Assembly: GCA_002753735.1 (NCBI GenBank) | Contig: PEAN01000012.1 | Location: forward strand, 14,575 to 78,574 | Length of the DNA stretch: 64,000 nt | Reading direction: 5' to 3' | Source of the DNA: Magnetococcales bacterium DCbin4 | GTDB lineage: Bacteria; Pseudomonadota; Magnetococcia; Magnetococcales; UBA8363 | In this document: positions 5,325 through 17,350 of the stretch, piece by piece | Layout: each line of letters starts with the position of its first letter | Position numbering within the stretch: position 1 is the first letter of the stretch | Program-made: the position numbers and the translations under genes | Notes under the pieces: generated by a model | Told to the model about the DNA's origin: nothing | The model's input: only the letters and a program-made list of their open reading frames with translations | Database searches by the model: none

Positions 5325-5750
5325 TTGATTTCACGTTACATTGAGTCGGAGTATGTCCCATGCAATGGATTCATGATAGCTGCTTCTGGTGAAACCGAGG
5401 AGATGAACCGTCGCCTGGCGGAATCTTCCGATGGAATCAGCGAGGTGAACCGTAGCGTGCAGGAGATCACCTTCGGTATTGGTGAGGTCAATCGGAGCGT
5501 TGGTACGGCGACCCGGGAAGTTCATAACATGGATGGTCATGTGGTGGCGGCATCTAAAACCACAGAGGAATCTGCGCGCAATGTATTGGAGATCAGTAAA
5601 GCGGCAACCCTGGTCGCGAAACACATGAGTGGCGTGAACCAAACCGCGCAACAGATGGGAGAAATGGGAATAACGGTGAAAAACCGTGCCGATGACATGG
5701 CATCCATTGCCCGCGCACTCAACGAGGATTTGGCCCGATTCAAAGTCTGA
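5325..5750 (+). pseudogene. C-terminal remnant of a methyl-accepting chemotaxis protein signalling domain
   Basis: The translation (..EMNRRLAESSDGISEVNRSVQEITFGIGEVNRSVGTATREVHNMDG..VNQTAQQMGEMGITVKNRADDMASIARALNEDLARFKV) looks like the heptad-rich C-terminal arm of MCPs. No TM, HAMP or hairpin-tip sequence is encoded in any frame of 4590-5324. The ORF opens on TTG and the first ATG is at 5373. It ends 12 nt before attL. Confidence 0.5.
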
Positions 5751-5761
5751 CGACAGATGAT

Positions 5762-5813
5762 TGGCGTCCCCGGCGCGATTTGAACGCACGGCCTACGGAT
5801 TAGGAAACCGTTG
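5762..5813. repeat. attL: displaced copy of the 3' 52 nt of tRNA-Arg (partial, not a functional tRNA)
   Basis: tggcgtccccggcgcgatttgaacgcacggcctacggattaggaa(a)ccgttg matches 17274-17325 except for one base (a vs t at repeat position 46). Sequence diverges immediately after. Confidence 0.9.
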
Positions 5814-5820
5814 ATGGAGG

Positions 5821-5854
5821 CCAATAAAGGCCAACAAAGGCCATAAACAAAAGG
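5821..5854 (+). repeat. Tandem ~10-bp repeats CCAA(T/C)AAAGG next to the attL core (candidate arm-type or regulatory protein sites)
   Basis: ccaataaagg ccaacaaagg ccataaacaaaagg lies 7 nt after the att repeat. The same CCAACAAAGG unit recurs at 7585-7620. Confidence 0.6.
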
Positions 5855-6007
5855 AAAATCTGGTTTGAAAGTGGTCGATATTGGTCTATAAGGGCCATTG
5901 CGGTTGACAGTTGGTTGACACAACAAAGTCTTGAATGTTTTTTCCTCGGTGCCAGAATTTGAGAATTTTCTTCTCCTGGACGTATCAAAAATGGTACATT
6001 ACGCTTT

Positions 6008-6355
6008 ATGTTACTGATTCGATTTCCTGTTCATTTTTTTAAAAGCGGCTCTGGTTCAGAACCGGTTCGTGACTGGTTGAAAAGTCTGGATCCCCAAGAC
6101 AGGAAAATAATCGGTGAGGATATCAAAACGGTTCAAGTCGGTTGGCCTGTGGGCATGCCGTTGGTGCGAAAGTTGAAACCTGATCTCTGGGAAGTTCGCT
6201 CCAGGTTACAGGGAAGGATTGCACGGGTTCTTTTTACATTTGAAGATGGGAAAATCGTTTTGGTCCATGGTTTCATAAAAAAAACCCAGAATATACCACT
6301 TCAAGATTTGTTTATTGCCGAAAGTCGGATTTCTGAAATAAGGGGACGAAAATGA
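6008..6355 (+). CDS. Type II toxin, RelE/HigB superfamily (phage Gp49-like)
   Basis: 115 aa. FFKSGSGSEPVRDWLKSLDPQDRKIIGEDIKTVQVGWPVGMPLVRKL..LWEVR..GRIARVLFTF..GKIVLVHGFIKKTQ is the typical Gp49/HigB-like pattern. It has a 4-nt ATGA overlap with the downstream HTH gene. Confidence 0.7.
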   Translation: MLLIRFPVHFFKSGSGSEPVRDWLKSLDPQDRKIIGEDIKTVQVGWPVGMPLVRKLKPDLWEVRSRLQGRIARVLFTFEDGKIVLVHGFIKKTQNIPLQDLFIAESRISEIRGRK

Positions 6356-6639
6356 ATGGTTCTTACCTTGGAAGTGATTTTGATGATTTTTTGAAGGAAG
6401 AGGGAATCTTGGCCGAAGTTGAAGCAACGGCCATTAAAAGAGTTTTTGCGTTAAAGCTGAAAAAAATGATGGAAGATAAGAACGTTTCCAAGACTGAATT
6501 GGCTCGGCGAATGAAAACAAGTCGTGCCTCAGTAAATCGGCTATTGGATCCTGAAAATCGTTCTATTACGCTCCAGACTATGGAAGGTGTGGCTCTTGTC
6601 ATGAATGCACGTTTGAAAATTGACTTGGTTCAGGGCTAA
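6352..6639 (+). CDS. XRE-family HTH antitoxin (HigA-like)
   Basis: 95 aa. The HTH is KNVSKTELARRMKTSRASVNRLLDPEN. It is translationally coupled to the upstream toxin, in the toxin-first order typical of HigBA. Confidence 0.7.
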   Translation: MNGSYLGSDFDDFLKEEGILAEVEATAIKRVFALKLKKMMEDKNVSKTELARRMKTSRASVNRLLDPENRSITLQTMEGVALVMNARLKIDLVQG

Positions 6640-6660
6640 GTGAGAATTGTTTAACAAAGA

Positions 6661-7149
6661 TCATGAAAGCAAATCATCTCTGATTTTATATTCGTTTGGA
6701 ATGGCTTCGATGTTCCATCGGACAATCCTGATTCCTGCAATGAAAAAAATCAAATCCCTCTTCTTGTCTTTTTTTTTGTCATGGCTTCCGTCGTCCAGTT
6801 CGATGGCTGAAATAATGTTGAATTCATTGTCACAAACAAGGAAGTCCACCATTTTTTGTCTGAACGTCTCTTCCATGGTGATATCCTTTTTTGGGTTTCC
6901 GCTATTTGCATAAAGGAATCTTCCCAAGGATACCTGGGAAAGAATGATGTGGTCTGGAAAGACATTTATGAGTCGGCGATATAAAATCTGTTCCGGTTTC
7001 GTAAGGGGTTGGGTCCAGTTGATTTCGGTTACATCGAAATTTGCGTGTCGGCGTATTTTTATCACCTTTGCAACTATTGGTTCGAGAATAAAAGCCCATG
7101 CAGTAATACTTGTAGCTAAATTATAGATATTCATGGCGTTTAATTCCAT
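6661..7149 (-). CDS. DUF2726-like (restriction-endonuclease-fold) protein with an N-terminal hydrophobic helix
   Basis: 162 aa. LTKPEQILYRRLINVFPDHIILSQVSLGRFL ... VDFLVCDNEFNIISAIELDDGSHD..KKRDLIFFIAGIRIVRW matches the DUF2726 pattern as I recall it. The N-terminus ITAWAFILEPIVAKVI is hydrophobic. Confidence 0.55.
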   Translation of the reverse strand: MELNAMNIYNLATSITAWAFILEPIVAKVIKIRRHANFDVTEINWTQPLTKPEQILYRRLINVFPDHIILSQVSLGRFLYANSGNPKKDITMEETFRQKMVDFLVCDNEFNIISAIELDDGSHDKKKDKKRDLIFFIAGIRIVRWNIEAIPNEYKIRDDLLS

Positions 7150-7244
7150 TCTACGTATCCTTATAATTTTGCGACAGTTTCATAAACAAAAATCATCATT
7201 GCGGGCAAAATTTTTTCCTACCCATCTTTTCCAAACTCGTCCTG

Positions 7245-7529
7245 CTATCCGGTATCCGATCCTGCTTTTTTGGAGTCCCTGCGCATTCTCTCAATCTCAG
7301 GGCTGATGTGTCCGTGTTCCTCGTCGGTCAGGCCTGTGACCAACCAATAGGCAAATTGGGGCCAATGTTTGCCAATGGCCGTGATAAGATCTTCTGTTGC
7401 TCTTTGGCCACCTACTTCAACTTTTTCAACCATGCTCTTTTTAACACCACAAATTGTGCAAAATTCATGTCTCCCAAAATTTAGGCATTCTCTGATCGCT
7501 CTTATCCGGTTTCCTAATAAATTTTCCAT
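7245..7529 (-). CDS. XRE/CI-type HTH repressor (prophage lysogeny regulator)
   Basis: MENLLGNRIRAIRECLNFGRHEFCTICGVKKSMVEKVEVGGQRATEDLITAI is a classic HTH_3 layout. I prefer ATG at 7529 (cat at 7527-7529). The ORF-track start 7601 would run through the tandem repeats of the switch region. The gene is divergent from the 7628 HTH gene. Confidence 0.65.
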   Translation of the reverse strand: MENLLGNRIRAIRECLNFGRHEFCTICGVKKSMVEKVEVGGQRATEDLITAIGKHWPQFAYWLVTGLTDEEHGHISPEIERMRRDSKKAGSDTG

Positions 7530-7584
7530 CACATATCGAAAATATTTAGACAGTCTGATGATTGATTTGAAACTTGCCGTGAAT

Positions 7585-7620
7585 CCAACAAAGACCAACA
7601 AAGGCCAACAAAGGCCAACG
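7585..7620 (+). promoter_or_regulatory. Switch region: 3.5 tandem copies of CCAACAAAG(A/G) between the divergent repressor and HTH genes (candidate operators)
   Basis: ccaacaaaga ccaacaaagg ccaacaaagg ccaacg lies inside the 98-bp divergent intergenic region 7530-7627. Confidence 0.6.
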
Positions 7621-7627
7621 ACACGCT

Positions 7628-7831
7628 ATGTCATCAGTCTCCGTTCGTCAAGCTTCGATGGGTCCATACATGACTCAAGAGCGTTTTGCAGAGGTGACAG
7701 GGGTGTCGCTTGATGTTGTTCGAGGTTGGGTGAAGAAAGGGTATCTCCCTATTTTTGATCTGGGAAAATATCGGTTGATCAACGTTGCACTGCTTACCAA
7801 AGAGGCTTTGGAACAGGAATACAAAGTCTAG
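7628..7831 (+). CDS. Small HTH DNA-binding protein (Cro/excisionase/AlpA-like)
   Basis: 67 aa. MTQERFAEVTGVSLDVVRGWVKKGYLP is an excisionase/MerR-type HTH. It is the first gene of the rightward phage operon. Confidence 0.55.
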   Translation: MSSVSVRQASMGPYMTQERFAEVTGVSLDVVRGWVKKGYLPIFDLGKYRLINVALLTKEALEQEYKV

Positions 7832-7848
7832 AACCTGAAAAATGAGGT

Positions 7849-8163
7849 TTGGAAGTGGTGTCGGGTTTGTGTTCAGTTGAAGGGGTAGGAAATGTGGTAA
7901 CTAGTGACCAGGAAAATGGTCTTGTTGATAAGGTATCCAAACAACAGCGTTACCGTGAAAAGCAGGGAAAAGAAATGAAACAAAAAGCCCTTTATCTATC
8001 CAAGCGGGCTTGTGAAGTTCTTGATCTATTTGCCGGTGTTGACGGTATGAATCAATCGCAGATTGCTTCTTTGATTATTGAGGCTGCTGGGGATGTTTTG
8101 GAACATGGTAATCCCGTTATTTGGAGTGGTGTCATCAAACAATTGCGGGATCGTTTGGTTTAG
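7849..8163 (+). CDS. Hypothetical phage protein, possible ribbon-helix-helix domain
   Basis: The ORF opens on TTG. An internal ATG at 7975 follows a purine-rich stretch. MKQKALYLSKRACEVLDLFAGVDGMNQSQIASLIIEAA resembles the RHH/CopG layout. Confidence 0.35.
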   Translation: MEVVSGLCSVEGVGNVVTSDQENGLVDKVSKQQRYREKQGKEMKQKALYLSKRACEVLDLFAGVDGMNQSQIASLIIEAAGDVLEHGNPVIWSGVIKQLRDRLV

Positions 8164-8225
8164 ACAATTCCTCTGGATAGACTGCCCAGGGGATGAAATG
8201 AAATGCAGTCAAATGGAGATAAGAC

Positions 8226-8543
8226 ATGAAGATGAGTTTGAACATTGTATCGGTCGAAAAGTTTGAGTTCAAAGGTGAGGATGGCCGGGAGGTGAAGATG
8301 GGTCGTGTCAGTGCGCTTTCTGATTTTGAAAAGACCGATTCAAGGGTTGGTTGTCCTGTTGTCAATTTCAGCATGGATATCGGTTTGTTTGAAACGTTTG
8401 CGACTTTGGGCAAATTCCCTGCGATGTATGATGTTGACGTTGAGTTGCGGGCGGGGGGGCGGGGGAAAGCTTCTTTGTTTGTTCTCGGTGTCGAGCCGGT
8501 GAAGCCTGTTTCTGAAGTTGGTTCAAAAACCAAGAGCGTTTGA
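8226..8543 (+). CDS. Hypothetical phage protein at the position of the inovirus ssDNA-binding protein (g5p/RstB analogue)
   Basis: 105 aa, beta-rich by eye, located just upstream of the coat module. The call rests on position only, with no motif recognised. Confidence 0.3.
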   Translation: MKMSLNIVSVEKFEFKGEDGREVKMGRVSALSDFEKTDSRVGCPVVNFSMDIGLFETFATLGKFPAMYDVDVELRAGGRGKASLFVLGVEPVKPVSEVGSKTKSV

Positions 8544-8560
8544 AGGCTGGGGATCATCGG

Positions 8561-8797
8561 ATGATTTGGCGGTTAATTTGTACGGGTGAAGGAACTCCAT
8601 CACCGATCACAAACGGCGGAAAAGTGCAGGCCTGCGTCGATGGCACCATGCCAATTTGGCAGCCTGAGCAAGGGTTGGATATTTTATCTTGGGATCAAGA
8701 TGCTATTTCAATTGTAATGCTTTCCACCCTGATGTTCTACGTCGCAGGGCTTGGACTTGGTGCAATATTGAGGTTGTTGGGAAGGTTTGGAAGGTAA
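8561..8797 (+). CDS. Small phage protein with a C-terminal TM helix (minor virion/assembly protein candidate)
   Basis: The ORF-track start 8540 is TTG and the first ATG is at 8561. The C-terminus is hydrophobic then basic: ISIVMLSTLMFYVAGLGLGAILRLLGRFGR. Confidence 0.35.
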   Translation: MIWRLICTGEGTPSPITNGGKVQACVDGTMPIWQPEQGLDILSWDQDAISIVMLSTLMFYVAGLGLGAILRLLGRFGR

Positions 8798-8848
8798 GTC
8801 ACAGGCAACGTTGCCAATCAATAATGGTTTTTTTAAGGAGATGGATTC

Positions 8849-9079
8849 ATGAAGAGTTTTCGGGAGTTTTTGCAAAAGGGTGCTGCACTTGGTTCCGGAT
8901 TGGCCGTTGGAGTCGCCACAAGTCCCGCCTTTGCGGCGCTTGACGTGTCGGGTGTGCAAACGGCATTGGACAACAATCTGAGTTCCTATGAAACCGTTGC
9001 CGTGGCCATCATCGGGTTTGTGTTGGGCGTGGCCGTCATCTACGGGATCCTCAGTTTGATCAAGGGCCGTGCACGGTGA
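8849..9079 (+). CDS. Inovirus major coat protein (g8p-like)
   Basis: 76 aa. Signal peptide MKSFREFLQKGAALGSGLAVGVATSPAFA, then a mature ~47 aa with an acidic N-terminus (LDVSG..D..E), a TM core VAVAIIGFVLGVAVIYGILSLI and a basic tail KGRAR. A strong terminator follows. Confidence 0.8.
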   Translation: MKSFREFLQKGAALGSGLAVGVATSPAFAALDVSGVQTALDNNLSSYETVAVAIIGFVLGVAVIYGILSLIKGRAR

Positions 9080-9170
9080 TGCAATGCCTGAGTTGATTTT
9101 GGGGGGACTGTGGGTTGCTTCGTTGTTGGTCGGAATTCATCATGGGCTGACCATGTTGTGAGGAGAAGAA

Positions 9171-9195
9171 GGGGTGCGATGCGCCCCTTTTTTTT
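9171..9195 (+). terminator. Intrinsic terminator after the major coat gene
   Basis: ggggtgc gat gcgcccc forms a 7-bp stem (one G-U pair) with a 3-nt loop, followed by T8. Confidence 0.75.
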
Positions 9196-9204
9196 GTGAA
9201 AGAG

Positions 9205-10680
9205 ATGAAAAAGATTTCAATAATATTGATTATTGTGTTGATTTTTTTGTCGGTAAATAGGCCTAGGCAGGCTGATGCTATTGCTCCCATAGCATGGGGT
9301 ATGTCTATAGCACTTTGGGCTGTTGGGTTGGGTTTGTTGTGGTATGATTCTTTTGGACGTCAGAGTGATTTTACCTCTAAATCTCAACCGGTTACCAAAG
9401 AACAAGCTTCTGGGGCTGGAAGTCCTCCAAAAGTTCAACCAATTTTTAAATTTTTATCATCAGGTTCTCCATATTATTATGAAGGGGATTTTTCTGGCGC
9501 ATTAGATAAGATTATGCAGTATTCAAAAGAGACTGGTTCAAAATGTCAAGATGCATTTTATAAAGCCAGTGAGTTACCTCCTGTTCCAACATCTGGTACA
9601 GGAATAATTTATGTCAAACTTTATACTAATCAATGGCCTTGTACTATTCCAGGTTCTACTGGTTTTGCGCAGTATTTATCTCCGACTATTGGTTATAATA
9701 CTCCAACAACTCCCAGGTGTCCGACAGGACTTTCTGTTCAACCTGATGGTAAATGTGGTGATAGTTCCATGGCTGATGGTAAGCCTGGGATTGGTAGTCA
9801 ACCTGATGGGACGTTTGTTGATCTCATAGATCCTGATGGTATTGGAAGTGATGTATCGTTATCGGATGATAAGAAAAGCGTCAATGTTCCGAGTGTTGAT
9901 AATCCGGATTTAGGGATAACTGGCACGGCACAGTTATCAAAAACAGGTGCAGAAAATATGAACACGAAGATTGATGAAAAATATTCATCAATTGTTCACA
10001 AAGAAGATGGAACCACGGCAGAAGCGCAAGTGACTTTATCCAGGGAAGTTGCTCCGGATGGGTCTGTTGTGAATTCTAGTGAATCTGTTCAGTATGTTGA
10101 TGGTTCAACTCCTCAGGCGGGAGATAGGTTGACTGATTCGTCTTGGGTTGGTTCGGATGGTTCTATTGTTCTTACGGATCCGGTTCCAGGTGGATTGAAT
10201 GACACTTCCGGGGGTTCTGGTTCTGGGGGTGGTGATGGAACGGGTGGAACCGGTGGAACGGGTGGAACCGGTGATTTGTCAGGGCTGCAATCGACTTTGG
10301 ATGGGATAAAAAATGGTCAATGTGGGGGTGTTGGACAACCGGAGTGCAAGGTGGATCTCGGTGATGTCTCTGGGGTTTCAGTTCTTGATAAGCGGTCGTC
10401 GGTCAATTCGGATGCGCTTAATCCGGATGGTCAGGTAACAAAGCAGGATGAATTAAAAGCAGAAATAGATGAATTGAAAGAACAGTTGAAGGTTGGCTTT
10501 GAGAGATTGGTGAATTTGAATCTGAGTGGATCAGAGTATTTACCATCATGGAGTTTTTCAACACTTGGTTCGACGTTTACAATTGATTTGGCCAGATATG
10601 CAGAATTGCTTTCTCCGATTGCTGATTTAATTTTGTTTTTTACATCGGTAACCTGCCTGTTTATTATCATTGGAGATTAA
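9205..10680 (+). CDS. Minor coat/adsorption protein (g3p-like) with a Gly-rich linker
   Basis: ATG at 9205 (the track start 9196 is GTG). Signal peptide MKKISIILIIVLIFLSVNRPRQADA. Central linker SGGSGSGGGDGTGGTGGTGGTGD. C-terminal hydrophobic anchor ILFFTSVTCLFIIIG. It occupies the g3p position. Confidence 0.65.
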   Translation: MKKISIILIIVLIFLSVNRPRQADAIAPIAWGMSIALWAVGLGLLWYDSFGRQSDFTSKSQPVTKEQASGAGSPPKVQPIFKFLSSGSPYYYEGDFSGALDKIMQYSKETGSKCQDAFYKASELPPVPTSGTGIIYVKLYTNQWPCTIPGSTGFAQYLSPTIGYNTPTTPRCPTGLSVQPDGKCGDSSMADGKPGIGSQPDGTFVDLIDPDGIGSDVSLSDDKKSVNVPSVDNPDLGITGTAQLSKTGAENMNTKIDEKYSSIVHKEDGTTAEAQVTLSREVAPDGSVVNSSESVQYVDGSTPQAGDRLTDSSWVGSDGSIVLTDPVPGGLNDTSGGSGSGGGDGTGGTGGTGGTGDLSGLQSTLDGIKNGQCGGVGQPECKVDLGDVSGVSVLDKRSSVNSDALNPDGQVTKQDELKAEIDELKEQLKVGFERLVNLNLSGSEYLPSWSFSTLGSTFTIDLARYAELLSPIADLILFFTSVTCLFIIIGD

Positions 10681-10683
10681 GGA

Positions 10684-11046
10684 ATGGATTTCAAAACTGC
10701 AATATCAAATAGTTTGCAGTCGATATATAATTTTTTCGAGTCAATCTATTTGTTTCTGTTTGATGGGGGGATTTCTGAATGGGTTGGAAAGGTAATAAGC
10801 TATTTCTATGAAGTATTAATGGTTTTATATTATAGCTTGATCAAAATAGTTTTGACTGGATTGGTTGCTTTTATCGATGGTTTGTATGAATCGATGAACA
10901 TTGCTGGTGCGGTGGAAGGGTACTGGCAGAATATTGATGAAGGATATCGTGGGATCATGGTGTTTTTTCATGTACCTTTAATTTTGTCGATGTTGTTGTC
11001 TGCGTTTGTCCTCAGAAAGATTTTGAAATATACGGAAATATTTTAA
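10684..11046 (+). CDS. Small multi-TM virion/assembly protein (g6p-like)
   Basis: 120 aa with several hydrophobic segments. It sits between the g3p-like and Zot genes, with a TAATG 1-nt overlap with zot. Confidence 0.5.
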   Translation: MDFKTAISNSLQSIYNFFESIYLFLFDGGISEWVGKVISYFYEVLMVLYYSLIKIVLTGLVAFIDGLYESMNIAGAVEGYWQNIDEGYRGIMVFFHVPLILSMLLSAFVLRKILKYTEIF

Positions 11047-12245
11047 TGCCTATTACAATTTATTACGGTCCTCCAGGAGCCTACAAAACGTCATCGGCGC
11101 TTTTGGATTTCTTTGCTGATGCTGCCTTTTCAGGACGGACTGTGATGACAAATATTCGTGGTTTGGATGATCGTGCACGAGTGGTTTCGGTGCTGGAAAA
11201 AAGATTTGAGGCTAAAGGGTTTGGTCCATGGCGTACCCAAGGGAAAAAGGTTCCTGATCATTGGCAGTTGATTTACAGGCAATCGGAAGATTCAAATGGG
11301 ATTAAAGAATGGCAAACGTTTTTTCATGACTTACCGCGGGGCGCATTGATCATTATTGATGAAGCACAACGCATTTATCGGAAAGAACTGACCGCAAAAC
11401 AGCTTTCTGAGTTCGATTATCCCGGTGGTCCGGATCGAGCATCGGAAATGGATGTGCCTGCTGATGTAAGAACAGCTTTTGAAATGCACCGGCACTGGAA
11501 TCTTGACTTTGTACTTACGTGTCAAAATTTGTCCCAATTGCATGAGTTGATCAAAAATACTTCCGAAATGGCTCATAGTCATCAGAATCTTGCATCTGTA
11601 TTGCTATTCATGAAGGGGCATTACGTGGTCCGGACTCATCCGGCGGATACGTATCTTGCGGAAAAAAATATTGTTCTTCAGCGGAATCGAGTGATTCAAA
11701 AATGGATTTTCGATTTATACAAATCTACTGCAACGGGGATTGTCAGTGACACCAACACCGGAACAAGCATATGGCGAAATCCAGCTATCGCGATCCCAGT
11801 TGTTGGGCTTGTTCTTTGCGTCATATACCTTTTATTTTTCGCGAAAATTCCCTTTCTTGGCAAAGATCATACTGCCGGTGTCAAGGATACTGATAAAGCC
11901 CTTGGCAATAGTGGCTCTGTACCTGTATCGAAAGATCGTAATGCGGTTGATAAGGGTAACGTTCAGAATACTGATGGTCCTGGTGTTGGTTTATCTTTCT
12001 TTGAAACTGGTCATGTGAAGAATAAGATTTTCCTGGTCGGGCTGATTGGCGGAAAAGCAAGATTCGAGGTTGAAACTGATGATGAGATGGTAGGTTTAGT
12101 CTATGATCAGGATGTTATAGAAAGGATTGGATACAAGGTTGAGATATTCACAAATTGTCTGGCCAAGCTTACAAAAGGTGGGGTTGATGAATACGTTCGT
12201 TGTAAGGGAATTGAAGGTGAAAAGAAAAATCGCGGTATTCTTTAA
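11046..12245 (+). CDS. zot: Zot-family assembly ATPase (g1p-like)
   Basis: MPITIYYGPPGAYKTSSAL..GRTVMTNIRGL.., Walker B LIIIDEAQ, and AFEMHRHWNLDFVLTCQNLSQLH parallel the CTXphi Zot motifs as I remember them (GAPGSYKTSGAL, ITNVRGL, FIDECG, AFDMHRHHGWDI). There is a central TM, AIAIPVVGLVLCVIYLLFF. Confidence 0.85.
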   Translation: MPITIYYGPPGAYKTSSALLDFFADAAFSGRTVMTNIRGLDDRARVVSVLEKRFEAKGFGPWRTQGKKVPDHWQLIYRQSEDSNGIKEWQTFFHDLPRGALIIIDEAQRIYRKELTAKQLSEFDYPGGPDRASEMDVPADVRTAFEMHRHWNLDFVLTCQNLSQLHELIKNTSEMAHSHQNLASVLLFMKGHYVVRTHPADTYLAEKNIVLQRNRVIQKWIFDLYKSTATGIVSDTNTGTSIWRNPAIAIPVVGLVLCVIYLLFFAKIPFLGKDHTAGVKDTDKALGNSGSVPVSKDRNAVDKGNVQNTDGPGVGLSFFETGHVKNKIFLVGLIGGKARFEVETDDEMVGLVYDQDVIERIGYKVEIFTNCLAKLTKGGVDEYVRCKGIEGEKKNRGIL

Positions 12246-13827
12246 TGTTTTTATTTTATTTCTTTGTTTCAATGGGGTGGCATTTCCAGAAGGACGGTTC
12301 ACAACCGTGAATTTTCATAATATTCCGTTGGCCGAAGTTGCAGAGTATGTTTCTCAAACTGCCAAAGTTGGAATCATTTTTTCTGGTATTGAAGATCGAA
12401 TAACCTGGAATCAGACTTTTCTGATCGATAATTTGTTTTTGGTTTTCTCGTCGGTTTTGAATGCTCAGGGGTACTACTTTGCTTCTGAGGGGTATGGATT
12501 GTGGTCAATTCGAAAACATGATCAAGGGACGGACATAAACTCAGGAGCACATCTTGTCATGACCTTGAGAAATGTATCAGCAAATGATTTGAAAGAATCG
12601 GTTAATTTGTTATTTGGGAATAAAATAAGAATTGCAGGTGGAGAGAAAGAAGGACGGGTCATTATCATAACAGGGCAACTTTCATTATTGCAAAAAGCAT
12701 TTTCAATCATTCAACAATTTGATGATTCATCAGAGCCGGTGAAGGATCATGAAATTGTGGATATATCTCACGAATTGACCAGGAAGATTGAACCACGTTT
12801 AAGGTCCGTACTTGGAGAAACCGTTGGCATAACTTCCAATCCTTGGTCGAAACAAATATTGATCAAAGGTACTCCATCACAAAGGCTTTTGGCTCGAGCG
12901 GTGGTTGAGATGATGGATAAACCACAGGCAGATTTAAGGCGCGTTGTCCGGTTGCACAGGTTGACGGCTTCGGATGTGGTGACAGTTATAAAGGAGCTTG
13001 CCGAAGCGGTTGTAGTGCATGCCGTTGGTTCTCAGGAGGTTCTGTTGACTGGACCATCCAGCGAAGTGCTGAATCTTGTCGACGTCGTGCGGGATCTTGA
13101 TGGAGGCCGTGAACAGGTGCGTGTTGATGCAATCATTGCGGTTTTGTCCGATGATGGACTTGAACAACTGGGAACCAAGTTGGAAATGACAGATTCCGGA
13201 CTCGTGGAAAATTTCGTTGCTCAAGGACTGGCAGTTGATGGTCCAAATCTGTTGATGGATTTGGTAACAGGCCGTCTGAAAGTTCACATCAACGCTTCCA
13301 AAGGGGAATCAACGGGACGTGTCTTGTCATCCCCATCTTTGACGGTTCTTGACGGTCAAACTGCATCCATATTGGTTGGTCAAAACATACCTCTCATTGC
13401 CAAGCATCAATCAGGAACGTCAGGTGACAAAGAATCACATGATGGAGTCGAGGTAAATCGTGTTGATGTCGGTTTGTCCTTGCAGATCACACCAGGTATT
13501 GAAGGGGACTTCGTGAGGTTGAAGATTTTGCAAGAGGTTTCCGGGATATCCCAACAAAACGTTGGCGCAGTAGACATTTCAACCAACGTACGAAGGATTG
13601 AAACATCGGTTTTGGTACCAAACGGTCAGACCTTATACCTGGGGGGGGTACGTGAAGATGAGACGGGAGCAACAGATTGGAAAGTTCCGATCCTGGGAGA
13701 TTTGCCAATTGTTGGGATGGTTTTTCAATCGAGTTCTCAATCAAGGAGGGGATCAAATCTTGTAATTTCAATTAAACCTTCTGTGATTTCAAGGGATGGT
13801 GATGGAGTACGAGAGTTAAGTTTATAA
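12187..13827 (+). CDS. Phage secretin (g4p-like; GspD/PulD-family outer-membrane channel)
   Basis: C-terminal secretin signature: TLYLGGVREDE..WKVPILGDLPIVGMVFQSSSQSRRGSNLVISIKPSVI. I prefer the start at 12187 (MNTFVVRELKVKRKIAVFFNVFILFLCFNGVAFP, signal-like) over the ORF-track 12127. It overlaps the zot 3' end. Confidence 0.8.
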   Translation: MNTFVVRELKVKRKIAVFFNVFILFLCFNGVAFPEGRFTTVNFHNIPLAEVAEYVSQTAKVGIIFSGIEDRITWNQTFLIDNLFLVFSSVLNAQGYYFASEGYGLWSIRKHDQGTDINSGAHLVMTLRNVSANDLKESVNLLFGNKIRIAGGEKEGRVIIITGQLSLLQKAFSIIQQFDDSSEPVKDHEIVDISHELTRKIEPRLRSVLGETVGITSNPWSKQILIKGTPSQRLLARAVVEMMDKPQADLRRVVRLHRLTASDVVTVIKELAEAVVVHAVGSQEVLLTGPSSEVLNLVDVVRDLDGGREQVRVDAIIAVLSDDGLEQLGTKLEMTDSGLVENFVAQGLAVDGPNLLMDLVTGRLKVHINASKGESTGRVLSSPSLTVLDGQTASILVGQNIPLIAKHQSGTSGDKESHDGVEVNRVDVGLSLQITPGIEGDFVRLKILQEVSGISQQNVGAVDISTNVRRIETSVLVPNGQTLYLGGVREDETGATDWKVPILGDLPIVGMVFQSSSQSRRGSNLVISIKPSVISRDGDGVRELSL

Positions 13828-13937
13828 TTTGGTTTTGCTATTGACTTTGCTTTTGACTGTTGTTTTTTTAAATATATAAAAATAAAAATAAGCTGGTTTT
13901 GACTTTTAAAATGTCTTAAGTGATAAGAGAAATAGCC

Positions 13938-13981
13938 TGTTGGAAACTTGTTGGAAACTTGTTGGAAAATTGTTGGAAAAA
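13938..13981 (+). repeat. Left iteron set: 4 x 11 bp TGTTGGAAA(C/A)T
   Basis: tgttggaaact tgttggaaact tgttggaaaat tgttggaaaaa, head-to-tail, in the non-coding region after the secretin gene. Confidence 0.85.
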
Positions 13982-13987
13982 CGGTTT

Positions 13988-14067
13988 TTTTTTCCTTTTT
14001 GAACGATCCCTTCTCCGAATCATTACAATCCAGTGTGCTTGTCCGGGATCGTTCAAAAAGGAAAAAA
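13988..14067. promoter_or_regulatory. Perfect 23-bp-stem hairpin (34-nt loop): candidate replication origin or packaging signal
   Basis: Left arm ttttttcctttttgaacgatccc (13988-14010) is the exact reverse complement of the right arm gggatcgttcaaaaaggaaaaaa (14045-14067). Confidence 0.8.
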
Positions 14068-14072
14068 TCGTT

Positions 14073-14116
14073 TTTTCAATAATTTTTCAATAGGTTTTCA
14101 ATAGGTTTTCAATAGG
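14073..14116 (+). repeat. Right iteron set: 4 x 11 bp TTTTCAATA(A/G)(T/G)
   Basis: ttttcaataat ttttcaatagg ttttcaatagg ttttcaatagg. The reverse complement (CCTATTGAAAA) loosely mirrors the TTGGAAA core of the left set. Confidence 0.85.
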
Positions 14117-14142
14117 CGGGCGATACAGAACAAAATTAAGTT

Positions 14143-14406
14143 ATGAACAATGATTTGGTTGAAAAGAAATGGTGCGCTATGTGTGATTTTGATGTGTATG
14201 GTCTGGAGGGTCTTGCCTTGGAATTTATGATTGAACAGAGGAATAAACATTCCTATGAGTTGGAAGATTATTTTGAAGGTATTGCTGCTTTTTTTGAGGG
14301 GGAGGATAGGTTTCCGGATGGGGTATTTGAGGAGTCGGATTCTCAGATTGCATTTATGAATGGTTGGGGAATGGCAGAAAAATTTTGTTTGAGAGGAAAA
14401 ATATAA
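14143..14406 (+). CDS. Hypothetical small acidic phage protein
   Basis: 87-aa ORF with an ATG start, immediately after the iteron region. No recognisable motif. Confidence 0.4.
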   Translation: MNNDLVEKKWCAMCDFDVYGLEGLALEFMIEQRNKHSYELEDYFEGIAAFFEGEDRFPDGVFEESDSQIAFMNGWGMAEKFCLRGKI

Positions 14407-14463
14407 AAAGTTCTAGAAAATGTGTCAATTGGTTACATCAAAACATCAACAGATAGGTGATCT

Positions 14464-14847
14464 ATGTCTTTTTTTGTTGAACAAAATATTAGGTGGGTTG
14501 CGAATGAATGTTCAAATGGATTCGTTGAAATAACGCCATATTTCTTTAGATCCTGTTCTGCGGTTGCATATTTTGTGAATTACACTGATGCAGATCTTTT
14601 TCGCAGGTCAAAAAATATGGAAGATTTTTTACGGTCCATGGAGGAGGTATTGGGGAAGGGCATGCCTACCTGTCCTGAAGCGCAATTGCAGGTTTGGAAT
14701 GAACTTCGTTCCTTGGTTGTTTCTTGTCTCTCTTCTTCGCAAGGTGATGCCCCTGAGCGAGGAGCGCCAGCGACGAGCGATGAGGGGCATCACCTTGTTA
14801 AGAGCTTCCCAAGGAGGTTATCCCCAATGGGCAAGACGTCCCTGTAG
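14464..14847 (+). CDS. Hypothetical phage protein (3' third doubtful)
   Basis: 127-aa ORF. Its last ~35 codons run through a GC-rich 15-bp-stem hairpin (14740-14797) that looks like a DNA structural element rather than coding sequence. Confidence 0.3.
   Translation: MSFFVEQNIRWVANECSNGFVEITPYFFRSCSAVAYFVNYTDADLFRRSKNMEDFLRSMEEVLGKGMPTCPEAQLQVWNELRSLVVSCLSSSQGDAPERGAPATSDEGHHLVKSFPRRLSPMGKTSL
14740..14797. other. GC-rich perfect 15-bp-stem hairpin upstream of rep (candidate nick site, second origin or other cis element)
   Basis: caaggtgatgcccct (14740-14754) is the exact reverse complement of aggggcatcaccttg (14783-14797). The 28-nt loop contains gagcga twice. A second 7-bp hairpin aagacgt/acgtctt lies at 14833-14855. 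Confidence 0.7.
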
Positions 14848-14912
14848 CACGTCTTATAAACTAGGTCGGACAACTGAGCGTAAGTGGTCATTAGTGGCCA
14901 TTGCTAAATTGT

Positions 14913-16208
14913 ATGGAGTTCGGAAAAATGCCTGAAAAGTGGAAATTTTGCAATAGATACGATCCCTATACCATGATCACCGGTGACTCTGACGAATTTC
15001 CGACTGATCCAAAGGGAAGTTTGTTCGAATCGGGTACTGGTCTCCACGATCTGAGCCATATCCATGTGTTGTCATCAACGGTTGATACGGTCAAACAGAT
15101 TTATCATGGTGTAATCAAGTTGAAATGGTTAGAAAAAATTGAGCGCTTTCTTGATTCTAACGAAGAATTCCTATCTGATGGTCCTTATGGTCCCTGGCAC
15201 ATTTCGAGAATCGGTAAAAGTTCAGGTTACCAATTGAAACTTCAAAATAACGAGTTGGGCTTTGTCATCTTGTTAAAGACCGTCTATGCCAAGCATGATA
15301 AACCAGCAAGTCATCTCAAAATTGAAGTTTCTCCACACAGGATTCGTTCTTCTGGGTCTTGTGGGGCTTTGCAGGGGAATTTGGACAGCATTGCCATTTG
15401 GCTGTTGGAGGAGGGCTGGAAGTATGTTGGTGTTGCCGTTCACCTTGCTGTTGATGTTCAGGGTTGGAAACCTAAAATGGATTTTATGCAAAAGTTGGTT
15501 ACAAGGACACGGACAACCAAGGATTTTCGTGGTATATCCGATTTTCAGCTTGATAATTTATCCGAAATATCAACAGTATACGATAATGGGCAGTCTTTCC
15601 TGTTTGGTAAAGCGTCTGCTTTGCAAATGGCCGTCTATCGCAAAGATCTTGAAATATCAAAAAGGGATAAAGTTGATTATTTTCATGATGTTTGGAACAA
15701 AGATGGGAAGGATTGGTTTGAGTCAGATAAATGTGTTTGGCGTATTGAGGTGAGGCTTCATCATGGCATTATGCGCGAGATTGGACTGGGGCTTGGAGGC
15801 AAAATTGAGTCCTTCCGGGAGTCTGAAAGTGTGCTGACCGATGTTTGGCGGTATGGGTTGGATCGTAACCGTTTGATGCTAACTGAGCGATATATTGATC
15901 CTTTTTGGCAATTATTGATGCAGGATGTTCAATTCTGCTTGCCACCTAGTGGTGTTGCGGTGCGTCGAGTAAAAAAAAAGGATATGTCCAATGCAGGAAA
16001 AAATGTGGCAATGATGATTGGCAACATTGTTACTCTGGCCGCTCGTCGTCAAATGGATGCTTTTCAAATTGTTCATATGATTCAGGATATGGCTTTGTAC
16101 GAAGATGTTCGGGATTATTTGAAGTCCAAGGGGTATCGTGAAGGTCGGCTTTTTGAGATGGTTGAGAGGGGGTTGAAGATTCGTCGTCTCCTTGGCAAGG
16201 CTGCTTAG
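14913..16208 (+). CDS. Rolling-circle replication initiator (Rep_trans/RstA-like)
   Basis: VGVAVHLAVDVQGW (the hHhAhD metal-binding-type motif) and CVWRIEVRLHH resemble the Rep_trans / phage CRI family. It is placed after the structured intergenic region. The start is uncertain: TTG 14901, ATG 14913, or ATG 14928, the last preceded by GGAG. Confidence 0.6.
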   Translation: MEFGKMPEKWKFCNRYDPYTMITGDSDEFPTDPKGSLFESGTGLHDLSHIHVLSSTVDTVKQIYHGVIKLKWLEKIERFLDSNEEFLSDGPYGPWHISRIGKSSGYQLKLQNNELGFVILLKTVYAKHDKPASHLKIEVSPHRIRSSGSCGALQGNLDSIAIWLLEEGWKYVGVAVHLAVDVQGWKPKMDFMQKLVTRTRTTKDFRGISDFQLDNLSEISTVYDNGQSFLFGKASALQMAVYRKDLEISKRDKVDYFHDVWNKDGKDWFESDKCVWRIEVRLHHGIMREIGLGLGGKIESFRESESVLTDVWRYGLDRNRLMLTERYIDPFWQLLMQDVQFCLPPSGVAVRRVKKKDMSNAGKNVAMMIGNIVTLAARRQMDAFQIVHMIQDMALYEDVRDYLKSKGYREGRLFEMVERGLKIRRLLGKAA

Positions 16209-16209
16209 A

Positions 16210-17235
16210 TTGGCCATCAAGAAACATTCATCCGGTTGGCAGGTGGATATCCAGCCTGGAGGCCGCGGTTGCCGTCGTTATCGGAAGACGTTTTCAACCA
16301 AGGGGGAAGCCCTTCGGTGGGAAATTTTCATGAAGGATCGTCTTCGGATCAATTCGGAATGGTTACCGGCTAAGAAAGATGGGCGGCACATGTCGGAATT
16401 GGTTGATGTTTGGAATAAGCACCATGGGCAACGGCTTCATTTTGATCAGTATAAACGTCTCGTTGCGTTAAGCCAGCGACTTGGGGATCCGGTTGCTGCA
16501 AGTTTCGATGTTCAACATTTTGCTGCTTACCGGGAATTGCGGTTGGCCGATGGGTTGACGCCATCGACCCTCAACCGGGAACATTCCTATTTGCGGGCCA
16601 TGTTTCATGAATTGAAACGGTTGGGACTTTGGTCAGGGGAAAATCCCATGGGAGGACTCCGCCAGTTGAAAGTTCCTGAGCGTGAATTGTCCTACCTCTC
16701 AACTGAGCAAATCCAGAAATTATTGGTGGAAGTGGACAAGAGTGGAAACCCGGATGTGGGCTTGGTCGTTCGGATCTGTTTATCGACCGGTGCTAGATGG
16801 GGTGAGGCAGAGGGGTTGAGGGCCGAACAGGTCCATGAGTGGAGGATTGATTTCTACGGTACCGGGACCAAGAGTGGCAAAAATCGCACTGTTCCTGTTT
16901 CCCATGATCTTGTCCAGCAACTCCGAGGGCGGGGTGTTTCGCATGGCCGGTTGTTCTCCAGTTGTGCTGGGGCTTACCGATCTGCGGTCAAGCGTATGGG
17001 ATTGGATCTTCCCGATGGCCAGTTAACCCACGTCTTGAGACATACTTTTGCATCTCATTTCATGATGAATGGTGGGAATATTCTCGTTCTGCAAAAAATT
17101 CTTGGTCATCAAAGTTTGGCTATGACCATGCGATATTCCCACCTTTCTCCCGATCACTTGAAAGAATCGATCAGGTTTAACCCTCTTGCAAATTCCGTTG
17201 ACACTTCGTTGACAGGAACGTCGGCGGTTGGGTGA
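16210..17235 (+). CDS. int: Tyrosine recombinase (phage integrase)
   Basis: C-terminal catalytic region: GARWGEAEGL (R), HVLRHTFASHFMMNGGNILVLQKILGHQSLAMTMRYSHL (H-x-x-R ... H ... Y). The N-terminus (L)AIKKHSSGWQVDIQPGGRG.RRYRKTFSTKGEAL is typical of this integrase family. A TTG at 16210 lies directly after the rep stop (TAG 16206-16208). The ORF-track start 16192 is also TTG. Confidence 0.85.
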   Translation: MAIKKHSSGWQVDIQPGGRGCRRYRKTFSTKGEALRWEIFMKDRLRINSEWLPAKKDGRHMSELVDVWNKHHGQRLHFDQYKRLVALSQRLGDPVAASFDVQHFAAYRELRLADGLTPSTLNREHSYLRAMFHELKRLGLWSGENPMGGLRQLKVPERELSYLSTEQIQKLLVEVDKSGNPDVGLVVRICLSTGARWGEAEGLRAEQVHEWRIDFYGTGTKSGKNRTVPVSHDLVQQLRGRGVSHGRLFSSCAGAYRSAVKRMGLDLPDGQLTHVLRHTFASHFMMNGGNILVLQKILGHQSLAMTMRYSHLSPDHLKESIRFNPLANSVDTSLTGTSAVG

Positions 17236-17273
17236 TTTTTGGCGGTCTTGTTTCTGTAAGTCTTTGTAAAAAA

Positions 17274-17350
17274 TGGCGTCCCCGGCGCGATTTGAACGCA
17301 CGGCCTACGGATTAGGAATCCGTTGCTCTATCCGGCTGAGCTACGGGGAC
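17274..17350 (-). tRNA. tRNA-Arg (anticodon CCT), CCA-encoded; attR core
   Basis: Reverse complement: GTCCCCG TA GCTC AGCCGGATA GAGC A ACGGA TTCCTAA TCCGT AGGCC GTGCG TTCAAAT CGCGC CGGGGAC G CCA. It folds as a complete 77-nt cloverleaf with a 7-nt anticodon loop, anticodon CCT. Confidence 0.9.

Follow-up and report, generated by a model that had tools for sequence, protein, structure and literature searches.

A strand-specific hairpin of 11-bp modules in the large intergenic region of an integrative Magnetococcales inovirus, a candidate packaging or replication signal

The 64,000-nt stretch of contig PEAN01000012.1 analysed here (the window) belongs to the metagenome-assembled genome (MAG) Magnetococcales bacterium DCbin4 and carries the prophage of an integrative filamentous phage (inovirus). 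Between the morphogenesis genes of this prophage and rep, the gene of its replication initiator, two arrays of tandem 11-nt repeats lie on either side of a perfect inverted repeat. From folding and comparative analyses, we conclude that the two arrays are the arms of a single 183-nt hairpin on the + (viral) strand, at 13935–14117, with about 79–82 paired positions, which was recovered by an inverted-repeat scan and by folding as single-stranded DNA (ssDNA). There is a strong likelihood that the element is a + strand signal acting in single strands rather than a set of duplex iterons. It is most likely an unusual version of a known type of element, a packaging signal or else a complementary-strand origin. 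By analogy with hairpin A of the phages Ff and IKe, our tentative preference is for a packaging (morphogenetic) signal. The + strand of the window is taken to be the packaged strand because the prophage is that of an integrative inovirus with a Pf1-type Rep.

The ascending arm (13938–13981) consists of four 11-nt units, TGTTGGAAACT twice followed by TGTTGGAAAAT and TGTTGGAAAAA, with GCC at its base (13935–13937) and CGG at its top (13982–13984). Besides being evident from direct reading, it was returned by Tandem Repeats Finder (TRF) with period 11 over 13938–13979 (3.8 copies, 96% match, score 77). A bulge of three T residues (13985–13987), seen in the fold and in the register offset of the two inverted repeats and ambiguous in its exact place inside a run of nine T, separates this outer modular stem from an inner stem. 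The two arms of the inner stem, TTTTTTCCTTTTTGAACGATCCC (13988–14010) and GGGATCGTTCAAAAAGGAAAAAA (14045–14067), are 100% complementary over 23 nt and have CCTTTTTGRACGATCCC as their core sequence; a 34-nt loop (14011–14044) lies between them. The descending arm (14068–14117) begins with TCG, continues with four 11-nt units (TTTTCAATAAT, then TTTTCAATAGG three times, at 14073–14116 by direct reading and by TRF, with period 11, 4.0 copies, 93% match and a score of 74) and closes with GGC. An earlier first-pass annotation of this DNA had described four TGTTGGAAAnT units, a perfect 23-bp stem with a 34-nt loop and four units of the TTTTCAATAGG type, all of which we recovered. It had also described the second array as loosely mirroring the first. 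The two are indeed related, but this wording understates the relationship, as they form the arms of a 56-nt inverted repeat (13935–13990 and 14062–14117, 80% Watson-Crick) in which the only exceptions are G·T pairs: all 11 non-Watson-Crick positions between the arms are transitions that give G·T (or T·G) on the + strand and C·A on the − strand. The minimum free energy fold of the + strand over 13935–14117 contains 82 pairs, 11 of them G·T, and no internal mismatch besides the 3-nt T bulge. Each module pairs TGTTGGAAAnT with nnTTTTCAATA through two to three G·T wobbles, and four such modules stand below the perfect 23-bp stem. Even within this one stem the units covary, with ...CT opposite GG... 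and ...AT opposite AT.... The point that an 11-bp period corresponds to about one helical turn still holds, but for four modules stacked on one stem, not for 4+4 sites in a duplex. The same intergenic sequence was assembled identically in three independent datasets (the NCBI MAG, JGI metagenome 3300003895 and Logan ERR711863), and the hairpin is therefore not an assembly artefact.

The fold prediction that had been proposed as a check gave one continuous + strand hairpin. Region 13900–14150 folded as ssDNA at −54.8 kcal/mol on the + strand, compared with −24.4 ± 2.9 kcal/mol over 200 dinucleotide shuffles, none of which folded as well (z = −10.6), and at −39.7 kcal/mol (z = −4.9) on the − strand. 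When the whole prophage was scanned in sliding 200-nt segments, the segment with the hairpin had both the lowest energy (−51.7; mean −19.7, sd 6.0) and the largest advantage of the + over the − strand (13.3 kcal; mean 2.9, sd 2.4). Because the arms differ by G·T wobbles only, the + strand pairs fully, while the − strand and a cruciform in the duplex do not; full pairing on the + strand only indicates, therefore, a signal read in ssDNA. Long intergenic hairpins of unrelated sequence occupy the same position in L196, in L197 and in Methylobacter-type loci such as L024, L017 and L018. Across six independent lineages, 45 G·T pairs were counted in + strand folds and 2 in − strand folds (p = 1.5e-7 against a composition expectation of about 1.7:1), which supports a + strand structure without proving one.

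Relatives were collected by Rep-based scans of IMG/VR, GTDB genomes and JGI metagenomes, which returned many Methylobacter-type relatives (36–41% Rep identity) and one close relative, L019. A protein database search added L192, L071, L072, L196, L197, L198 and L199; L070 starts inside rep. The hairpin is kept in L019 (Rep 91% identical) and in L192 (Rep 88%), from another Magnetococcales MAG. In L019, base, inner stem and flanks are as in the window, but the units number 3+3 and not 4+4. Its stem carries an A·T to T·A double change adjoining the CGG/TCG junction and, in the inner stem, a G·C to G·T change; one T·T mismatch is also present. The L192 contig starts within the left arm; its right arm contains four units, and its inner stem shows a compensatory A·T to G·C double change. 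Between the window and L019, the stems differ at 4 of 127 positions (3%) and the loops at 6 of 34 (18%; Fisher p = 0.0065), and the stem diverges less than rep, whose nucleotide divergence is 12% (p = 3e-4). Conservation of the stem is thus about 5 times that of the loop and 3–4 times that of rep, while the loop, which differs from that of L192 at 7 of 34 positions, diverges at about the neutral rate. The module also recurs outside the long hairpin. A second hairpin of L019 (73 nt) has the same module at its base (CCCTGTTGGAAG / CTTTCAATAGGG), with G·T at the same positions, and the more distant L198 (Rep 44%) has two hairpins with the bases CCTGTGG.../...CCATAGG, in which a G·T pair occupies the matching position and T·A and G·C are exchanged at the next-but-one pair from it. 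Given the conservation of the stem over the loop, the compensatory changes and the fixed positions of G·T in relatives, the stem is, judging from these comparisons, under selection for pairing on the + strand, and the loop is unconstrained. The 11-bp module itself seems to be a recognition unit that can be reused. Aligning related prophages had been suggested in order to see covariation in the stem and conservation of the repeat number; the covariation is there and the repeats are kept in L019 and L192, but the number of units varies between 3+3 and 4+4.

These results bear directly on the proposal that the element is a selfish or neutral quasipalindrome, kept symmetric by template switching and given its G·T pairs by C to T deamination, which we consider quite improbable. 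Such an origin would suit the patchy occurrence of long hairpins in the family and the Methylobacter-type palindrome described below, which is a clean indel flanked by direct repeats of about 22 nt, and deamination bias alone predicts imperfections that are exclusively G·T. It does not account for a stem that is so much more conserved than loop and rep, nor for the two compensatory double changes, one of which is a transversion pair. Template switching would erase G·T pairs, yet these persist at fixed positions, and the same module with its G·T recurs in the second L019 hairpin and in both hairpins of L198. Moreover, the 64-kb window contains no other arrays of the 11-mer units and no further exact copies of them in the prophage, for instance none near the promoters of the repressor or regulators; isolated exact 9-mers of the units occur in host sequence at 23095 and 58776. 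A MITE-like element was rejected on similar grounds, as no other copies were present in the 64-kb window and manual reading revealed no flanking direct repeat.

The arrays had been interpreted in the first-pass annotation as iterons for Rep or a regulator flanking a hairpin, that is, as duplex sites bound in the replicative form (RF), with the palindrome serving as a cruciform or nick site. Tandem arrays with 11-bp phasing do look like iterons, which in plasmids and phages are likewise short, helically phased tandem repeats in the non-coding region of a replicon, and the core shared by both arms, TRTTGRAAA, could be one degenerate site. Ff gpII, for its part, binds repeats at its origin. However, the units here are contiguous and 11 bp long, the two sets are complementary to each other, and they change in number together: units were lost symmetrically from both arms (4+4 versus 3+3). 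The G/A differences between the left and right sets follow the arms without exception, both in the three phages and in L198, as expected from pairing and not from a degenerate site. The 11-mers occur nowhere else in the prophage. Nor do the repeats covary with the initiator across relatives with 61%, 55% and 44% Rep identity: the motif does not track Rep, since it is absent at 61% and at 55% and present, in modified form, at 44%. With its arms pairing with each other and a candidate (+) origin located elsewhere, the element is very unlikely to be an iteron array, and this part of the earlier interpretation is not supported.

That candidate origin lies beside rep. A short hairpin, AAGACG-TCCCTGTAGCA-CGTCTT (14834–14856, + strand), predicted from its conserved loop and stem covariation to be the nick hairpin of the (+) origin, starts 717 nt downstream of position 14117, where the long hairpin ends, and just upstream of rep, so that the 11-mers do not adjoin the predicted nick site but lie some 720 bp away from it. 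A hairpin of this type, with the loop YCCCTGTANCA, is present in all relatives examined that have sequence directly upstream of rep, including the Magnetococcales and Methylobacter loci, Pf1 and Synechococcus phage Yong-M4-251. The Pf1 version is CGACG-CCCCTGTAACA-CGTCG (L073, at about 4333–4359), the hairpin of L074 lies at about 5678–5702, and GACGCCCCTGTAACACGTC is the predicted equivalent candidate nick site in Pf4 and Pf1. An alignment of 10 sequences revealed double compensatory changes at four of the five stem pairs, with the loop conserved. A 7-nt duplication at the junction of loop and 3' stem (e.g. GCACGTA-GCACGTC) was found independently in L019, L052 and L198, a pattern expected from slippage at a site of nicking or termination. 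The hairpin is probably the (+) origin nick site of the Pf1-type group, for which it is the best candidate on comparative grounds. Directly upstream of it lies hairpin B (14739–14798, + strand), found by repeat and fold scans, which has a GC-rich 16-bp stem and about four copies of GAGCGAC in its loop (TRF period 7). The position of hairpin B is conserved in relatives: in L019, L192, L071, L072, L196, L197, Pf1 and the Methylobacter group (GATTGA/GAATGA repeats), an analogous hairpin whose loop holds purine-rich repeats comes before the nick hairpin. It is a candidate complementary-strand origin or Rep-binding element. Just before the start codon of rep, a repeat scan also identified the direct repeat AGTGGTCATT AGTGGCCATT (AGTGGYCATT twice; 14883–14902, + strand), whose position is conserved in L071 (GGTCATTAGTGGTCATTAG), L072 (CAATAGTGGTCAATAGTGGCCAATAG), L192 and L019. 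As sites for Rep or as operators, they are more plausible than the 11-mers, and they are possibly Rep-binding or autoregulatory sites. The earlier view of the locus as the origin and packaging region of the phage thus stands in part: the hairpin is best read as a cis-acting signal for packaging or replication, but the likely (+) origin lies beside rep.

The position of the long hairpin is that of the large intergenic region of an inovirus, as the first-pass annotation had proposed; morphogenesis genes lie upstream and a Pf1-type initiator downstream. It begins 108 nt past the stop codon of the last morphogenesis gene, which encodes the secretin (pIV; 12127–13827, + strand; Pfam Secretin 2e-40, Secretin_N; phrog_1012, protein IV of M13), and is the first structure after this gene, upstream of the predicted nick hairpin and rep. 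The packaging signals of Ff and IKe likewise follow gene IV, with stems of 24 bp in f1 and 22 bp in IKe (bioRxiv 10.1101/2023.12.30.573655), and changes in the loop left the Ff signal unaffected according to Russel & Model 1989, as quoted in the same preprint. Hairpin A of Ff (f1/M13/fd) and IKe, the closest known element, resembles the window hairpin in being an imperfect + strand hairpin, strand/orientation specific, first after gene IV and upstream of the origins, in which the stem matters and the loop does not. For the window hairpin, stability and strand specificity come from folding, and the constraint on the stem but not the loop comes from the evolutionary proxy of 3% versus 18% divergence and compensatory changes. 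We favour a packaging signal because the hairpin is the first structure after gene IV and has a long uninterrupted duplex with an unconstrained loop, because it contains no promoter-mimic hexamers, mismatch bubble or conserved loop motif, and because the family-wide hairpin B holds the place of the Ff minus origin beside the (+) origin. In addition, the hairpin is lineage-specific, as expected for the partner of fast-evolving assembly proteins. Candidate replication signals are accounted for elsewhere, by the nick hairpin at 14834–14856 and hairpin B at 14739–14798.

An Ff-type signal is needed in cis for efficient encapsidation, sits at the virion end that carries pVII/pIX and interacts genetically with pI, pVII and pIX. 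In the Ff model, the packaging hairpin stays free of ssDNA-binding protein and triggers the replacement of this protein by tip proteins at the pI/pXI–pIV machine. By analogy, the window hairpin would remain free of ssDNA-binding protein and would mark the end of the genome at which assembly begins at the pI/pIV export machine. The four modules, each about one helical turn, could offer repeated contacts along one face of the stem, and the restriction of imperfections to G·T would keep the + strand paired while making both a − strand hairpin and cruciform extrusion in the RF or prophage unfavourable. A doubtful extension is that the 11-bp module acts as a recognition code present in folded ssDNA and nowhere else, with its strength tuned by the number of copies. 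The fixed wobbles (CCTGT/ATAGG, TTGG/TCAA) are absent from the Watson-Crick RF and prophage, so that a phage or host protein could distinguish the substrate for packaging or priming from copies in duplex form. The count of modules is four in one hairpin in the window, 3+1 over the two hairpins of L019 and 1+1 over those of L198; modules may be redistributed between hairpins, which would conserve their total (4 versus 3+1), with gains and losses mirrored on both arms.

Several observations weigh against a packaging signal or limit the evidence for it. The stem of about 80 bp is 3–4 times longer than the f1 and IKe signals and about 10 times longer than those of Xanthomonas phages. Compared with hairpin A, it is built from four tandem 11-bp modules with imperfections that are solely G·T, it is followed by one or two open reading frames (ORFs) before the origin, and it has no sequence similarity to the f1/IKe signal, as a blastn search of 50,697 phage records returned no homology. 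Deamination of C to T in single strands partly predicts the G·T enrichment, so that only the compensatory changes prove selection, and a G·T bias suits any + strand role, be it packaging signal, minus origin or mRNA. Only two relatives are informative, and L192 is cut inside the left arm. No comparable hairpin lies between the morphogenesis genes and rep in L071 (Rep 61%) or in L199, which has a 70-nt intergenic region, and about half of the Methylobacter-type loci also have no long intergenic hairpin, for which reason we rejected such a hairpin as a feature of the whole family. In the Methylobacter group (L024 3598–3858 and L010, versus L013 3700–3960), phages that are otherwise almost identical differ by a clean indel, a near-perfect palindrome of about 215 nt (dG about −50 to −64 kcal/mol) that is either present or absent. 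This palindrome has no overall homology to the window hairpin, carries a direct repeat of about 22 nt (CCGATTGAAKGAGTGATTGAGG) on its flanks and lies inside the loop of a B-type hairpin; it is a palindromic cassette that is mobile, or else an element prone to deletion. Absence from some relatives together with this clean indel indicates that the phage can survive the gain or loss of such a hairpin. Finally, no pVII or pIX homologues were identified in this prophage, and its host is an uncultured Magnetococcales MAG.

The same presence and absence among close relatives, resembling a cassette with flanking direct repeats, would fit a dispensable, host-adapted element such as a complementary (minus)-strand origin. 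Here the hairpin would be a duplex island on the entering or displaced + strand, free of ssDNA-binding protein, at which host RNA polymerase, a primase or a PriA-type primosome starts a primer. We regard this as possible, although somewhat unlikely on balance. Its size of 183 nt, imperfect palindromic form and strict strand bias match single-strand origins (sso) such as ssoA and ssoU, and Frpo, and its place upstream of the predicted nick site means that it would be displaced late. Known minus origins (Ff B/C, ssoA/ssoU/ssoT/ssoW of rolling-circle plasmids, ssDNA promoters of the Frpo type) are strand-specific imperfect palindromes, 150–300 nt, upstream of the nick site; they are active only as ssDNA, dispensable and exchangeable among relatives, in which the window hairpin can be likened to them. 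A long, strand-specific imperfect palindrome upstream of the double-strand origin is indeed what we found. Within the Methylobacter group, a shorter hairpin after pI is constant and the long one is variable, and Ff gene order would make the long one the minus origin in that group. On the other hand, a sigma70 scan of 13935–14117 combined with manual reading found no −35/−10-like hexamers at proper spacing on either arm, and a promoter-mimic stem was rejected accordingly, primase- or PriA-type signals being beyond what can be scored. There is no mismatch bubble as in Ff hairpin B or Frpo, and the loop, which evolves at a neutral rate, contains on reading no RSB or CS-6 (TAGCGT-like) motif; the stem is instead near-continuous and modular. 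Furthermore, hairpin B, in its family-conserved position, already occupies the place of the Ff minus origin upstream of the nick hairpin, and a minus origin leaves the 11-bp modules unexplained. A packaging signal therefore remains our preferred reading.

Action at the level of RNA was also considered: the stem of about 80 bp, with G·U pairs, might act in mRNA as a barrier, terminator, RNase III site or stabiliser between the morphogenesis and rep operons, or as the 5' leader of the rep operon, which appears improbable. Folded as RNA, the region reaches −100.7 kcal/mol (z = −15) on the + strand, on which nearly all long phage ORFs lie, and −61.4 on the − strand. G·U pairs are well tolerated in RNA, 11 bp is the helical repeat of A-form, and the terminator scan found no separate terminator after pIV. 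Manual reading also picked out a weak promoter-like site upstream (TTGACT...GATAAG, 13901–13929), but this is poorly conserved in L019. Nor does the hairpin resemble an intrinsic terminator, a possibility that we rejected: it is not among the terminators called by the scan, and there is no U-tract (T-run) after 14117. No Rfam family was matched, and the sub-threshold hits were to miRNA-precursor models only, which reflect a generic long hairpin. The modules are explained no better than by the ssDNA readings.

Other comparisons help to place a putative packaging signal of this kind. The signals of integrative Xanthomonas inoviruses (phiLf-UK etc.) are 20–26 nt in length with 7–8-bp stems, lie mostly inside the rep ORF, depend on loop sequence and are independent of orientation, and non-Ff packaging signals in general differ widely from that of Ff (bioRxiv 10.1101/2023.12.30.573655). 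The window hairpin shares with them the use of a hairpin in an integrative inovirus, but is far longer and has an unconstrained loop. The forked attP(+) hairpin of CTXphi is another + strand ssDNA hairpin of about 150 nt that is formed from two inverted, non-identical sites and is functional only when folded; CTXphi lacks an integrase and relies on XerCD, whose substrate is this hairpin of two dif-like sites with an unpaired centre. Here, by contrast, the prophage has its own tyrosine integrase and a tRNA-Arg attachment (att) site, and the hairpin has no unpaired centre. A folded attP of the CTXphi type was rejected in view of this integrase, the 52-bp att repeats and the continuous stem; no explicit dif search was made. 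The earlier statement that the layout differs from the arrangements of Ff and CTXphi is consistent with all of this. A binding site for integration host factor at TTTCAATAGGTTT was likewise rejected, having two mismatches to WATCAANNNNTTR and no conservation in L198.

Experimental knowledge of packaging signals and complementary-strand origins is confined to few filamentous phages, namely Ff, IKe and some Xanthomonas phages, and the literature that we searched named no packaging signal or origin for the Pf1-type integrative group. The present locus offers a candidate signal together with natural variants (3+3 versus 4+4 units, compensatory pairs) that amount to a ready-made mutational series, and the family-wide candidate nick hairpin of the Pf1-type (+) origin, being present in Pf1 and Pf4, is testable in Pseudomonas. 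If true, a wobble-encoded, modular ssDNA signal would be of a kind not described for any filamentous phage. There is a more general caution as well: tandem repeats that look like iterons can be the arms of a single-strand hairpin, which is recognisable by asymmetry that is limited to G·T.

The prophage of 11.5 kb (5762–17325, + strand) is delimited by 52-bp direct repeats and a shift in GC content. The repeats (5762–5813 and 17274–17325, 98% identical) correspond to the 3' part of tRNA-Arg(CCT) and represent the att duplication. Its GC content is about 42%, compared with 52–58% in the host, with a strong excess of G over C on the + strand. Nearly all long ORFs are on the + strand; those on the − strand are a helix-turn-helix (HTH) repressor-like ORF and one neighbour. 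From the left, the gene order is a RelE/HTH toxin–antitoxin-like pair, the HTH repressor (−), coat protein B, a pIII-like protein, an Ace-like pVI, Zot/pI, secretin/pIV, the intergenic region with the hairpin, two small ORFs, Rep and the tyrosine integrase, which has Int_N and Phage_integrase domains. Coat protein B, the Ace-like pVI, Zot/pI and secretin/pIV, all upstream of the hairpin, were identified by Pfam and PHROG matches. The Pf1/Pf4-type rolling-circle initiator (14928–16208, + strand; phrog_1159) has 426 aa as called and 435 aa when counted from 14901, where the ORF opens; the 435-aa protein is 32–33% identical to Pf1 orf430 and Pf4 PA0727. PA0727 is the experimentally identified rolling-circle initiator of Pf (PMC4863604). 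As hairpin B overlaps the 3' end of orf127, the C-terminus of this ORF may be spurious.

A blastn comparison of the intergenic region with the 50,697 phage records gave no match. Pattern scans of IMG/VR for two adjacent left or right units returned 79 and 38 loci, respectively, mostly on large double-stranded DNA phage contigs, which are chance matches because none joins both arrays. The same phage as in the window was found on contigs of 11,271 bp and 10,740 bp in JGI 3300003895 and Logan ERR711863, and these contigs may be free or circular forms of the phage.

Minor observations concern the surroundings of the hairpin and its relatives. The RelE/HigB-like and HTH antitoxin-like pair at the left end of the prophage is located at 6008–6639. 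Between the pIV stop codon and the hairpin, TGNTWTTGACTKT occurs three times (13836, 13848 and 13894) and a stretch of A and T only spans 13866–13893. The last copy (GGTTTTGACTTT) alone is conserved in L019, and could be the −35 element of a rep-operon promoter. On the − strand, a strong sigma70-like promoter match (14428–14400, TTGACA-17-TATATT, 11/12) points leftward into the hairpin, antisense to orf87, and is not conserved in L019. Close relatives differ in the genes of the intergenic region: orf87 itself (14143–14406) is absent from L019 and L192. L019 contains an insertion of about 430 bp after pIV (495–985), which holds a 78-aa ORF and the extra one-module hairpin. By visual comparison, this ORF is seemingly homologous to an 86-aa ORF after pIV in L071, and the window retains at about 13858–13876 a degenerate remnant of the left arm of the extra hairpin (CTGTTG TTTTTTTAAAT). 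The 3' end of the window hairpin (14100–14124, TTTTCAATAGGCGGGCG) resembles a stretch in the 3' arm of the Methylobacter palindrome (TTTTGAATAGGCGGCG, L010/L024 at about 3775–3795, with GAATA bulged); the likeness could be chance or a shared recognition motif, and the L198 counterpart reads TTTTCCATAGG(C/T). In L198, a gene similar to AcrVA2 (PF26125) sits between rep and the integrase gene (2894–3889) and is a possible case of anti-CRISPR cargo in an inovirus.

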